Below are positions 31,085 through 51,182 of a stretch of DNA of 64,000 nt, in pieces (positions within the stretch are counted from its first letter, which is position 1; each line of letters starts with the position of its first letter). A program made the position numbers and the translations under genes. This stretch comes from Eledone cirrhosa. Its lineage: Eukaryota. The notes beneath the pieces are model-generated. The model was not told where the DNA came from, made no database searches, and saw only the letters and a program-made list of their open reading frames with translations. The stretch spans positions 24,242,001-24,306,000 of the forward strand of contig OZ024752.1 of the NCBI GenBank assembly GCA_964016885.1, written 5' to 3'.

Positions 31085-31164
31085 CTCCAACTAATTAGTT
31101 TCTGCAATGGTATAAAGACAGTTACGTAATGAACTGTTGAGAATTTCATTGCGTCATCAGGGAG
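31085..31164 (-). ncRNA. Type-I hammerhead motif with enlarged stem II
   Basis: CUCC-CUGAUGA-C GCAAUG...CAUUGC A-GAAA-CUAAUUAG-UU/GGAG. Confidence 0.78.
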
Positions 31165-32111
31165 GTCTATTCTCAGCCAAGTCTCCAGGCAATGCGCGGA
31201 CACTGGGGACTCATATAAAAATAATAATAATTCGGTAAATGGAACAGCTATCGGGGACTGGATTCCAAGTACTGAAAATCTCGCTGCCACTGGTCAAATG
31301 GCCGATTCTAAAGAATCAATGAGGTGACACTGAGGCTAGTCGGTAGGAGTGGGATGGTAAGATGACAGACGCCTACTAACACACCAAAAATTTAGTAGTG
31401 GTTTTGGCAGGTTTGCTCGACAAATCAGTGATTTGGAGATAAATATAGATAATTTAATATATCTACTAACATAAGCGCACAGATGTACGCTAATGCCAGC
31501 AAATACACAGGTTATGTCATAGTACCTAGGTGGTTCAATGCAGGAGGATGCAGAACAATAATATAATAGACGTAAAATAAGAATGAAATTCTCAACAGTT
31601 CATTACGTAACTGTCTTTATCCCATTGCAGAAACTAATTAGTTGGAGTGAAAATTTAAGTAAGTTAATTCTTTAACATTTTTAAAAAAAATTTTCTTACT
31701 TTACGTCTTTTATATTATTGTTCTGCATCCTCCTGCATTGAACCACCTAGGTACTATGACATAACCTGTGTATTTGCTGGCATTAGCGTACATCTGTGCG
31801 CTTATGTTAGTAGATATATTAAATTATCTATATTTATCTCCAAATCACTGATTTGTCGAGCAAACCTGCCAAAACCACTACTAAATTTTTGGTGTGTTAG
31901 TAGGCGTCTGTCATCTTACCATCCCACTCCTACCGACTAGCCTCAGTGTCACGTCATTGATTCTTTAGAATCGGCCATTTGACCAGTGGCAGCGAGATTT
32001 TCAGTACTTGGAATCCAGTCCCCGATAGCTGTTCCATTTACCGAATTATTATTATTTTTATATGAGTCCCCAGTGTCCGCGCATTGCCTGGAGACTTGGC
32101 TGAAAATAGAC

Positions 32112-32191
32112 CTCCCTGATGACGCAATGAAATTCTCAACAGTTCATTACGTAACTGTCTTTATCCCATTGCAGAAACTAATTGGTTGGAG
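32112..32191 (+). ncRNA. Type-I hammerhead motif with enlarged stem II
   Basis: CUCC-CUGAUGA-C GCAAUG...CAUUGC A-GAAA-CUAAUUGG-UU/GGAG. Confidence 0.75.
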
Positions 32192-32476
32192 TGAAAATTT
32201 TAGTAAGTAAGTTAATTTTTAAAAACTTTTTTTAAATTTTCTTATTTTACGTCTTTTATATTATTGTTCTGCATCCTCCTGCATTGAACCACCTAGGTAC
32301 TATGACATAACCTGTGTATTTGCTGGCATTAGCGTACATCTGTGCGCTTATGTTAGTAGATATATTAAATTATCTCTCTCTCTCTCTCTCTCTCTCTATA
32401 TATATATATATATATATATATATACTAGCATATATATATATATATATATATATATATATATATATATATATATATA

Positions 32477-33356
32477 CTAGCATTAAAGCCCGGCGTTGCT
32501 CGGGGTCATTAAGTTACCAAAGTTAGGTTGCACCACCCATTTTATGGCAGCACTTTTTTGTCTGCCAGGCACTGGGTGAATGAATTGTAGACCTGGAAGC
32601 ATGAGCTGCGCCAGCAGTGACAATTTTAGTTTCGCCTATGGATATTATCTCTGTGCAAAAAAGTGTTGAAATTTATTGTTTCACAGTACAGACGATGCCA
32701 GCCGAACAACAGAGCTGCGATGGAGTTGTTCTGCATGGTTGTCTGTGTGTTTTCTAAATTTAAGACAGTAGGGAGGGTTGTGATATGAGGGAGAGTTAGC
32801 TGTTGTTTCTAGCAGGTTTAGTGACCTCATAGAGGATATGTGTTTTCTAAATTTAAGACAGTAGGGAGTGGTGTGATATGGCGGAGAGTTAGCTGCTGTT
32901 TCTAGCAGGTCTAGTGACCTCATAGACGATATGTTTTCTAAATTTAAGACAGTAGGGAGGGGTGTGATATGGGGGAGAGTTAGCTGCTGTTTCTAGCAGG
33001 TTTAGTAACCTCATAGTGGATATGTGTTTTCTAAATTTAAGACAGTAGGGAGTGGTGTGAACGGACAGTATCACCATCAAGTTTGGAAAGAGAAAGTAGC
33101 ACAAAGTATGAAGTTGTATAGATTTTGAATGGTAGTAGAAAGAGTTCAGCAGTTTAAATGAGAGAGAAAAATCGTAAAATATTGAGTTTTAACTATTTTT
33201 TGCGTAATTGTGGGTGAAATTGAAAGAATTATCTCCGTCAAGACGCAATCGAAACTATTTCTAATTCTGAATTGTAAATTTCAATTGAAGAAATTCTATA
33301 TCGTAGATTTCTATAACGAAGGAGCATGACCACACACTGAGCTTTATAGATTATGA
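32477..33356 (-). mobile_element. Non-autonomous Helitron with internal ~93-bp tandem repeats
   Basis: 3' CTAG|T at 32477 with the hairpin CCCG-gcgttgct-CGGG, and 5' TC at ~33356. About 3.4 units starting tgttttctaaatttaagacagtaggga lie at 32746-33060. Confidence 0.78.
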
Positions 33357-34021
33357 TACACACACACACACACATATATATATATATATATATATATATA
33401 TATATATACAAATATATACATTTACATATATATATATATACATATATGTATATATATATATACATATATATATATGTACATATATATATATATATATATA
33501 TATATATATATATATATATATATATATATATATATATACATATATATATATGTACATATACATATATATATGTATATATATATATATATATATATATATA
33601 TATATATATTATATATATATATATATATATATATATGTATATATATATATATACATATAAATATATACATTTACATATATATATATACATATATGTATAT
33701 ATATATATATATATATATATATATATATATATATATATATATATATATATATATATATATATATATATACATATATATATATGTACATATACATATATAT
33801 ATATATATATATATATATATATATATATATATATATATATATATATATATATAAGGAATTTATATCTAGTAACATTTATATACACACAGATGCATATCAA
33901 TGCTAGCAAATATATAGGTTTGTCTTATTAACAATGTGGTTCAATGCATGGGGTTGCACAACAATAATATGAGAGACGTAAAATAAGAAAATTATAAAAT
34001 TAACTTACTTACTAAAAAATC

Positions 34022-34104
34022 ACTTCCAACTAATTAGTTTCTGGAATGGAGTAAATATATTTTCCGAAGAAACCTATAGAAAATCATTCCGTCATCAGGA
34101 AAGT
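34022..34104 (-). ncRNA. Type-I hammerhead motif with enlarged stem II
   Basis: Mirror of 34560-34642. Confidence 0.78.
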
Positions 34105-48507: not shown

Positions 48508-49100
48508 GTAGGAGGTGAGTTTTATTGTAGTACAATAAAGCAATGCAGATATCGGATAAGAAGCACTCTACAGTTTGTAGGACTGGAGTATACATAATAT
48601 ATAAGAACAAAAGATGGTTAAAAGAGTTCCATGTATTTTATTATGCGCATTTCAAAAACAAATATCATCATGCAATAATATTTGTGTTTTCATTAGATAA
48701 AAGAGGGAGACATGATATGAAGGTTAAAAAACACTTGTGGATAGTGCAGTTTTAAATCAACATATGAAAAGTAGTTTTAGATTGATGTGTGATATCGGGA
48801 AAAATATTTTATTTTGAGGGGGGGGGGGGGGGGGCGTGAAAAAGAGGAGGAGATGAGAGTAAAAAGTGGAGAGGGAGGAGTATAATGAGGAAGGATGAGA
48901 TAGGAGGAGAGATGGGTGATAGAGAGAGAGAGATAGCTTTTATAACTGAGAAAGATATTTTGTTTTACATAGAGAGGTTGAAAACCGTTGGAAGATAACG
49001 TATAAATTAAAAGAATTTGAAAATTAACGGAGAGAAAAATAATGTAAAGTTAAGGTTTGTATATTGAGGGGTTTAATAATATGTGCGTTAAAAAAAAAAA
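48508..49100 (-). mobile_element. pLTR-like non-coding island
   Basis: Sits in (TA)n, shares its end with 38010-38144 and contains a hammerhead fold. Confidence 0.65.
48636..48702 (-). ncRNA. Hammerhead motif with G5->A (probably inactive copy)
   Basis: UUUUAU-CUAAUGA-AAACACAAAUAU...AUAUUUGUUUUU-GAAA-UGCGCA-UA/AUAAAA. Confidence 0.68.
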
Positions 49101-49285
49101 ATATATATATATACATATACATATATATACATATACATATATATATATATATATACATATTCATATATATATATATATATATACATATACATATATATAC
49201 ATATACATATATATATATACATATTCATATATATATATATATATATACATATATATATATATATATATATATATATATATATATA

Positions 49286-49480
49286 TAGGAACCAGTAAAA
49301 CCCCGACAGCTGAGCTCAAGCCGTTTCGACGGCTAATTCTGAGTCCAGAATTAGCCGTCGAAACGGCTTGAGCTCAGCTGTCGGGGTCTTACTGGTTCCT
49401 ATTACCCACTCTACTACCTCAAGTATTGAGTACTTTGGTGCGTTATGGTCCACCTGGTTCCTTACCACATTTCCTTCGTT
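49286..49480. mobile_element. Short palindrome built from the 3' half of a hammerhead
   Basis: Arms 49286-49342 and 49345-49401. Each reads GCCGUC-GAAA-CGGC uUGAGCUCA GCUG-UC/GGGG, with the CUGANGA half missing. Confidence 0.65.
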
Positions 49481-49729
49481 ATATATATATATATATATAT
49501 ATATATATACATATATATATATATACATATATATATATATATACATATATATATATATATATATATATACATATATATATATACATATATATATATATAT
49601 ATATATATATATATATACACATAAACATATATATATATATACATATATATATATATATATATATACATATATATATATATATATATATATATATATATAT
49701 ATATATATATATATATATATATATATATA

Positions 49730-50011
49730 TGGAGGAGGTTATAGTTCACTTGAAGCATTGTGTAATGAGGTATGTATAATAAAGCCAAAACAATGCAGGT
49801 ATGGACATAGAATGCCGTTTTGAACTGGGCCTGGCTCAGGCGTAAGGAAAGGAGGAGGTTATAGTTCACTTAAAGCATATAACCTCCTCCTTTCCTTACG
49901 CCTGAGCCAGGCCCAGTTCACAACTGGATTCTATGTCCATACCTGCATTGTTTTGGCTTTATTATACATACCTCATTACACAATGCTTCAAGTGAACTAT
50001 AACCTCCTCCA
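49730..50011. repeat. ~280-bp palindrome with an internal 120-bp direct period
   Basis: ggaggaggttatagttcactt(g/a)aagcat occurs at 49731 and 49851, and the right half is the reverse complement of the left. Confidence 0.8.
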
Positions 50012-50376
50012 TATATATATATATTTGTATATATATATATATATATATATATATGTATATATATATATATATATGTATATATATATATGTATATATATAT
50101 ATATATGTATATATATATATATATATATATATATATATATATATATATATATATATATATATATATATATATATATATATATGTATATATATATATATAT
50201 ATGTATATATATATATATGAATATGTATATATATATATATGTATATGTATATATATGAATATGTATATATATATATATATATATATATATATATATATAT
50301 GTATATGTATATATATATATATGTATATATATATATATGAATATGTATATATATATATATATGTATATGTATATAT

Positions 50377-51182
50377 ATTCCAACTAGATGTTACAGTAAA
50401 GTGAACGTTCAATATTTCTGTTTTATAAACATATAAAACAGAAATATTGAACGTTCACTTTACTGTAACCATCGTTTGAAAACGACTTATTCTTTTTTTA
50501 AATGCATGTAATGTTATCTTTTTACACCACCGTTTGCATATTTCTGTTTTATATGTTTATACACACGATATGGCTTTCTACAATAATAGTACTAAACACT
50601 GTTTTTTGGACCCCTTTAGAAATAACCTGCTACTATAATAGCCCCAATAACTTGTCTGTAACTCTGTACCACTTTGACCCCTTTAACTAAATTTTGTCCA
50701 AACAACACCACTAGAAGAATTTACTTCCCCCGCCAACCCTAACACGCCTCATTAAGCTAACTGCTGCCAAAGCACTCTCTCCCTACAATCTCTACTACTC
50801 TGACAGTCTTAAATCCGAAGACTCCCTCCCCCTTACTCGCTCCCCCTCTTCCCCTTCCCTTCCTACCTCCTTCTTTATCTTATATCTAGTGTATAAAATA
50901 TTTTCATATCATTCTACTACAAAGGTCTGACGACATGGTGTGTTTTCTTTACAGTGTACGTACGATTTATGATAATATTTTTATATTATTCAAATAGCAA
51001 GGTATAGGTAACCCATACACTATAGAAACAATTGTTACCTAATAAATTCTTTATAGCCGCATTTCCGTTTCATAAACTTCTCCATATTTTCTCCGGATTT
51101 TAAAACACACTTTATTATCCGTTGAGCAATCTCCGACGTCGGTTGACTCCATCCAATGCGACTACTTAGTAACATTGGAATA
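50377..51182 (+). mobile_element. pLTR-like island with short inverted ends, a 5' hairpin (50392-50470) and a hammerhead
   Basis: attccaa..tgttac and gtaacattggaat form the termini, within (TA)n. Confidence 0.65.
50923..51040 (+). ncRNA. Type-I hammerhead motif with ~90-nt stem II domain
   Basis: AGGU-CUGACGA-C AUGGUG...CACUAU A-GAAA-CAAUUG-UU/ACCU, immediately followed by AAUAAA. Confidence 0.75.

Follow-up and report, generated by a model that had tools for sequence, protein, structure and literature searches.

We analysed a window of 64,000 nucleotides (nt) from the Eledone cirrhosa genome (3.0 Gb, rich in AT microsatellites), spanning positions 24,242,001 to 24,306,000 of contig OZ024752.1, in which an initial annotation had described a distinct subtype of the hammerhead ribozyme. 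Scanning both strands of this window with a hammerhead descriptor revealed five complete hammerheads of type I, each with a palindrome in stem III, carried by repeats of three families that we call A (31-32 kb), B (34 kb) and C (50.9 kb), together with a truncated sixth copy (Table 1). All five complete copies show the arrangement CUGAYGA-C-stem-A-GAAA-palindrome-UU reported by the initial annotation, and the stem II and stem I pairings quoted there are all present in the window copies.

Table 1. Hammerheads, host elements, candidate pseudoknots and end motifs in the window (positions counted from its first nucleotide; ORF, open reading frame; UTR, untranslated region; PLE, Penelope-like element; pLTR, pseudo-long terminal repeat)
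Feature	Position	Strand	Remarks
Type I hammerhead, family A	31085..31164	-	51-nt stem II domain, C·A junction, 10-nt palindrome; predicted cut after U at 31089
Type I hammerhead, family A	32112..32191	+	One substitution in palindrome; purine tract also substituted; predicted cut after 32187
Type I hammerhead, family B	34022..34104	-	Inner hairpin capped by C(UUCG)G; predicted cut after 34028
Type I hammerhead, family B	34560..34642	+	50-nt stem II domain; predicted cut after 34636
Type I hammerhead, family C	50923..51040	+	91-nt irregular hairpin as stem II domain, 8-nt palindrome; C·A junction, then A-U; predicted cut after 51036
Truncated sixth hammerhead	31582..31647	+	3' half only, without CUGAUGA; 64 bits with the covariance model
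Candidate pseudoknot, family A	31139..31174	-	GAGAAU (31174-31169) with AUUCUC (31144-31139) in the stem II internal loop
Candidate pseudoknot, family B		+	GGAAAA (34552-34557) with UUUUC (34581-34585)
Family A, inverted 5'-truncated copy	31019..31583	-	97.5% identical to the direct unit; inverted repeat I2
Family A, partial tandem	31582..32375	+	Truncated copy and 546-nt unit, then (CT)n(AT)n
Family B, inverted copy	33850..34315	-	97% identical to the direct copy, 73% to family A
Family B, direct copy	34340..34842	+	(AT)n end after GAGCAA motif (34821-34842)
Family C, short 5' inversion	50390..50469	-	
Family C, 3' end of Hydra-clade PLE	50430..51195	+	Last ORF codons, 3' UTR/pLTR, (AT)n end
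CUCC..YGAGCAA motif, family A	31838..31863	+	Just 3' of main insertion end
CUCC..YGAGCAA motif, family A	31413-31438	-	
CUCC..YGAGCAA motif, family C	51091..51129	+	Just 3' of one of two end clusters

Specifically, each complete copy displays the C3UGANGA9 and G12AAA core segments and stems I to III, with stem I open, which are the features that define a type I hammerhead. In all of them a C follows A9, an A precedes G12 and the cleavage triplet is GUU, in agreement with the NUH rule; GUU is a weaker triplet than GUC, and a literature search returned no cleavage kinetics for it. The G10.1-C11.1 pair directly after A9 is absent and C·A is found instead, followed by G-C in families A and B and by A-U in family C. 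The stem II domain measures 50-51 nt in A/B and 91 nt in C, matching the 50-90 nt first proposed, while a second hairpin said to lie in loop 2 was recovered in part: of the window copies, only that at 34.5 kb has the AAUAUGUUU hairpin, and the 34.0 kb copy differs there. Compared with shuffled sequences, the five window copies fold with z-scores of -4.0, -3.6, -3.8, -1.9 and -1.2, those of the 34.0 kb and 50.9 kb copies being weak when taken singly. The stem III palindromes are predicted at +1.5 to +2.4 kcal/mol as hairpins and at -6.4 to -9.0 kcal/mol as intermolecular duplexes; by these calculated energies they favour intermolecular over hairpin pairing, as is characteristic of the dimer-type hammerheads of PLEs. 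A search of the window with Rfam at the gathering threshold gave no match, so that all five hammerheads are missed by a standard search, as the initial annotation had anticipated.

The same annotation had counted three diverged families. By BLAST, families A and B are 73% identical over ~440 nt, and both fall on one tree; family C shows no BLAST similarity to either. A covariance model built from genomic A/B copies scores the four A/B hammerheads of the window at 133-145 bits and gives no match at E<=10 with the family C hammerhead. Because A and B are this similar and C is unrelated to them by both BLAST and the covariance model, the window holds two independent lineages and not three, family B being a sister subfamily of A.

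Family A has a period of 546 nt, and the longest stop-free stretch of the circular unit is 87 aa; the monomer folds with z = -3.4. At 30/30 loci the copies form partial tandems whose 5' ends vary, usually with an inverted piece alongside, and they terminate in either (AT)n or (CT)n(AT)n. In one uninterrupted tandem array of 9.9 kb, 17 hammerheads are spaced ~550 nt apart; this array lies within a region of ~50 kb with family A matches (G000:C12:24,467,000-24,518,000, including L177), ~160 kb from the window. Genome-wide, the pattern CTGANGA-N38-68-GAAACTAATTAGT gave 10,850 matches, as against none for the reversed pattern, and the A/B motif is therefore not a chance occurrence. A/B consists of tandem repeats without an ORF, each unit carrying a single type I hammerhead, which is the arrangement by which non-LTR retrozymes are recognised; it combines this anatomy with the insertion pattern of PLEs (PMC8557442). 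Pieces of a Hydra-clade ORF beside 8 A/B loci were considered as an autonomous partner and rejected, as they look like adjacent insertions; the piece at L121 is separated by (TA)n. A separate tandem and inverted repeat of 311 nt at L121:88-2456, with a short-loop hammerhead, a CGCG palindrome and nearly 100% identical units, appears to be another young retrozyme family.

The setting of family C is different. The window copy is 93-96% identical to genomic copies that extend upstream into an ORF encoding a reverse transcriptase (RT) followed by an endonuclease (EN). At locus L125 this ORF spans 782 stop-free codons and ends ~410 nt before the family C hammerhead, and at locus L122 two hammerheads 2,967 nt apart enclose a frameshifted ORF, constituting a tandem unit. 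A single ORF with RT and a C-terminal EN, a length below 3 kb and a hammerhead in the pLTR are found here as in the Hydra clade. In addition, the protein carries the Hydra-clade signature ADKT, CNCTKPGTC (CxCX5C), CKLC (CxxC) and CNH (CxH), with RWR in place of RWK; these motifs match the published Hydra alignment when compared by eye. The EN region is present in at least 150 genomic copies at 94-100% identity, and the window copy ends in (AT)n, as expected for insertion at (TA)n. In conclusion, the 50.9 kb hammerhead lies in the 3' pLTR of an autonomous Hydra-clade PLE. This element context, PLE for family C and retrozyme-like repeats for A/B, had been overlooked in the initial annotation. 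The PLE at 52.7-54.4 kb was rejected as the source of this hammerhead, since it belongs to a different clade and is 23% identical to the Hydra ORF; it is part of a 5'-truncated non-Hydra PLE at 51380-54810 (ORF fragment 52687-54432, minus strand, GIY-YIG match) with an inverted terminal repeat interrupted by microsatellites. No relatives of the Hydra ORF were found in metagenome contigs, where the DNA hammerhead pattern matched five stretches, 0/5 with stems I and II; the same pattern gave no viral match.

To describe the stem II domain of A/B we aligned 34 copies, hand-picked out of 78 distinct copies to represent subfamilies (alignment A1, in which row L002 is displaced by one column in the loop). 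The proximal stem II is 6 bp long; one of its positions shows four pair types and another shows two. Stem II and the inner helix together show 55 both-side changes, a number that none of 500 shuffles reached, and their covariation score is 0.45, compared with <=0.10 in slid registers. On a tree built from the flanks outside the ribozyme (25/34 rows, 9 rows with <200 nt of flank being dropped), the stem II pair changes fall on several branches. In the same 34 copies the C·A, the G-C pair next to it, the core nucleotides, the palindrome and GUU are invariant. Therefore, the covariation that the initial annotation had seen in a few copies is borne out: stem II covaries under selection, and the structure of the enlarged domain is itself selected.

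Within this domain we identified a candidate pseudoknot, formed by GAGAA on the 5' side of stem I and UUCUC in the stem II internal loop. This pairing holds in 95.9% of cases in the A/B alignment, which makes it the best among the slid registers; the conservation of its two strands is 0.94 and 0.92, compared with 0.60 in the adjacent inner helix, and the pseudoknot duplex is predicted to be stronger than the alternative pairing in 32/34 copies. Its covariation amounts to one compensatory event and one likely gained pair, and 6/6 of the copies with GAAAA among the 100 matches listed carry UUUUC. Against it stand three observations: the change from G-C to A-U is confined to one clade of the tree, a UUCAC subfamily breaks the pairing, and pairing of the purine tract with a 3' U-tract, which would extend stem I, has a single compensatory change of its own. 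On balance we lean slightly towards the view that the large A/B domain replaces the usual loop-loop contact with a pseudoknot of 5-6 bp.

Large stem II domains extend beyond A/B. The class defined by the CAAUUG palindrome, which includes family C, gave 4,318 genome matches with domains of 55-85 nt (9 in the control) and 3,345 with domains of 86-115 nt (3 in the control), which brings the exact core matches to ~18,500 over three patterns and domains of 38-115 nt, all of them candidate ribozymes; a looser core pattern was swamped by an unrelated 57-bp satellite, and its counts were not used. That satellite (~57 bp; G000:C1:5,091,000-5,117,000, L037-L060) contains CTGATGAC and AGAAA. Stem I is of at least 3 bp in 33/42 inspected matches of the CAAUUG class, and at least five large stem II architectures share the palindrome, one of them a three-way junction of 93-97 nt. 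In the long-hairpin class, a hand-set helix of 10 bp, with conserved loop motifs on its flanks, is 78.8% paired with 21 both-side changes (0/500 shuffles), in an alignment where the three family C rows are out of register; RNAalifold, run on a MAFFT alignment of 17 sequences (A2), recovered the distal helix only. Two further features of the class were observed. The sequence AAUAAA stands directly after stem I in most of its families (L147-L176, L187-L205), as a possible polyadenylation signal or tertiary contact. The three-way-junction family (L185-L194, e.g. L191 and L192) is abundant and shows U·U, GUU and a repeat of ~990 nt; no Hydra ORF match was found for it.

The ends of the copies share a further motif. 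In family A, 25/31 non-tandem ends lie within ~20 nt before CUCC..YGAGCAA, as do 21/44 ends in family C, and among B-like copies 15/48 matches end at +190-209, with the motif at +203. Within the window all four matches of the motif fall inside these elements, with 0.36 expected, and text resembling it follows the ends of other families too. CUCC..YGAGCAA is therefore put forward as a candidate RT initiation signal. The Anolis PLE has two RT start sites (PMC11167929), comparable to the two end clusters per family observed here.

By analogy with related systems, tandem transcripts would fold as double hammerheads, in which adjacent palindromes pair into a stem III of 8-10 bp; each ribozyme would cut after GUU and release unit-length RNA, and the released monomers may circularise. 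Family A/B would probably be mobilised by a Hydra-type RT, starting internally near the shared CUCC..GAGCAA motif and inserting at (TA)n. Such a mode of insertion, of which the copies show the pattern, would produce fixed 3' ends, 5' truncation, inversions and tandems. As a whole, we hold with good confidence that the window contains dimer-type type I hammerheads of PLEs together with a probably PLE-mobilised, retrozyme-like repeat. Several observations weigh against this reading. The Hydra ORF of family C was not recognised by Pfam. The unit of 546 nt, and that of ~990 nt in the related U·U family, exceed the 170-400 nt reported for metazoan retrozymes (PMC7229834), a range that is descriptive, and for this reason A/B is filed as retrozyme-like. 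No autonomous element with a pLTR homologous to A/B was found by BLAST among the loci examined, and the link of A/B to Hydra consists of the short shared end motif and the insertion pattern. Finally, in the Anolis PLE the hammerhead depends on protein, and insertion in vitro can proceed without the hammerhead (PMC11167929).

The closest published relatives are the hammerheads of Hydra-clade PLEs (Craig et al. 2021, PMC8557442), which are likewise of type I, with a short palindromic stem III, a pLTR location, (TA)n targets, mismatched 10.1-11.1 positions and GUU, including Hydra-1_oBim. However, their published loop 2 is of 3-10 nt, whereas the stem II domains found here measure 50-97 nt and contain internal loops or a three-way junction, and the two palindromes used here are absent from that supplement. 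In the same source, PLE-X1_cBra resembles the present copies in the C...A flanking stem II and differs in a 7-nt loop and a UUC triplet, and the spike-moss elements PLE-X1_sMoe and PLE-X1_sTam have enlarged loops 2 of 29-35 nt; unlike the elements of the window, all three are plant or algal EN-minus elements. Metazoan non-LTR retrozymes (PMC7229834; bioRxiv 10.64898/2026.07.22.740005) share with A/B the ORF-less tandems with one type I hammerhead per unit, the range from dispersed copies to long arrays and a structured monomer; they derive from or depend on PLEs, and in the axolotl retrozyme HHR_Amex2 stem II starts at its base with U·U. The enlarged stem II sets A/B apart from them, and they are expressed as circular RNA, whereas A/B is known here from genomic DNA. 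Minimal PLE hammerheads (Cervera & de la Peña 2014, PMC4209133) have a dimer-dependent palindrome, a long helix II and, like A/B, an extra nucleotide after A9 followed by G-C, but the copies described here carry an additional A in front of G12; their palindrome is longer, and their loop 2 is large and structured. A pseudoknot between stems I and II is reported in ~40% of hammerheads (Perreault 2011, PMC3088659). The (+) hammerhead of sCYDV-RPV, or satRPV, has a comparably long helix II with internal loops and, to judge from a cited title, requires a double hammerhead. Unlike the PLE-borne hammerheads of the window, satRPV is a plant viral satellite. Its core contains an additional C and an additional A, a loop1-L2a pseudoknot is formed, and the monomer is held inactive.

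Considering what the large domain does, the strongest alternative is that it serves mainly as a protein-binding or switch module (for the PLE RT, a host factor or the silencing of monomers) rather than as a stabiliser of catalysis. The use of one CAAUUG palindrome by so many different architectures points in this direction, as do the internal-loop motifs GUA, AGU/UAG and UAGAC, which are kept across diverged families while the helices covary; in addition, the activity of the PAc hammerhead is protein-assisted (PMC11167929), and sCYDV-RPV provides a known precedent for an atypical long helix II with internal loops. However, since published Hydra hammerheads work with loops of 3-10 nt (PMC8557442), the RT does not generally need a large domain, and we regard this alternative as rather unlikely.

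The retention of the junction and the triplet had been taken by the initial annotation as the mark of a selected structural subclass, of which a deliberately slowed core would be one form. The retention stands within A/B, where both states are invariant in the 34 subfamily copies despite the varying stem II and occur together in 10,223/10,850 genome matches, and the two are seen together again in family C and in one further Hydra-linked family (L200-L204). The subclass, however, does not hold among the related large-domain hammerheads, as C·A and GUU are found together in just 80/4,318 CAAUUG-class matches with domains of 55-85 nt. In 42 inspected matches of this class the junction pair is A·A (13), U·U (10), C·A (6), G-C (3) or another (10), and the triplet is GUA (18), GUU (14) or GUC (10), while families with domains that align to that of family C use A·A/GUC, U·U/GUU or G·G/GUA. 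Both states are also published: in File S2 of PMC8557442, GUU is found in 10/26 rows of Hydra-clade hammerheads, U·U in 14/26 and C·A in PLE-X1_cBra; U·U at 10.1-11.1 is reported in PMC3088659 and PMC7229834, and from these three sources the G10.1-C11.1 pair is known to be dispensable. Because they are both published and interchangeable in related families, C·A and GUU are known, labile states, and the sequence comparison indicates that they are tolerated and lineage-fixed at positions that vary in the clade; a selected subclass is improbable. Since an invariant G-C follows the C·A in A/B, another reading takes the C after A9 as the additional nucleotide already described between A9 and G10.1 (PMC4209133). 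It is more improbable still that the cores are catalytically near-dead and the sequences kept only as folded RNA for retrotransposition, which the 10.1-11.1 mismatch with GUU, the low in vitro activity of PLE hammerheads (PMC4209133) and the Anolis element, with cleavage dispensable in vitro and no reads ending at the cut site (PMC11167929), would fit, as the core nucleotides and the palindrome are invariant across the 34 subfamily copies while neighbouring helices change, and U·U at 10.1-11.1 supports cleavage (PMC3088659).

In the preferred reading, that of PLE and retrozyme-like hammerheads with selected large domains, novelty lies least in C·A and GUU, both being known variants, and their combination alone would not surprise a specialist. 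What may be new is the large folded stem II domain at the scale of thousands of copies; the literature search, which covered neither Lünse 2016 nor several supplements, returned no description of large-domain hammerheads in cephalopod or Hydra elements. We propose tentatively, at odds well short of even, that the Hydra-clade PLEs of this genome and their retrozymes have repeatedly expanded stem II into functional domains of 50-100 nt (a pseudoknot, a motif-bearing hairpin, a three-way junction) that gate cleavage or recruit the RT, forming an unrecognised class of >10,000 loci invisible to short-loop descriptors. If so, this class could explain the 'HHR_half_core' cases of Naiad elements, which are said to lack hammerheads and whose core halves lie 35-50 nt apart (PMC8557442). 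The genome also shows that entire families, even abundant ones, can escape ribozyme censuses that use Rfam or short-loop descriptors. In vitro, PLE hammerheads are slow, protein-assisted or dispensable. The genome offers a natural mutagenesis series: it has many subfamilies with helices that covary, autonomous ORFs that are young and intact, and >10,000 copies of a non-autonomous partner, and it makes the questions of the junction pair, the triplet, the pseudoknot and the RT signal directly testable.

Other features of the window were also recorded. A minimal PLE-type hammerhead lies at 61322-61280 on the minus strand, with U·U, a 4-bp stem II, an ACUAGU palindrome, GUA and a 6-bp stem I. At 20900-30410 a 9.5-kb ACC-rich low-complexity array is strongly skewed between strands and contains long open frames rich in Pro or His, and fragmented Helitron-like Rep/PIF1 helicase ORFs, with a PIF1 match, occupy 6200-9600 on the minus strand. 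Fragments of long interspersed nuclear element (LINE) RT ORFs are found at 2196-4949, 17606-19708 (RVT_1 match), 43912-47727 and 57520-63335. Finally, an inverted repeat of 646 nt at 36464-38013, with arms 97% complementary and 258 nt apart, is possibly another 5'-inverted retroelement insertion.

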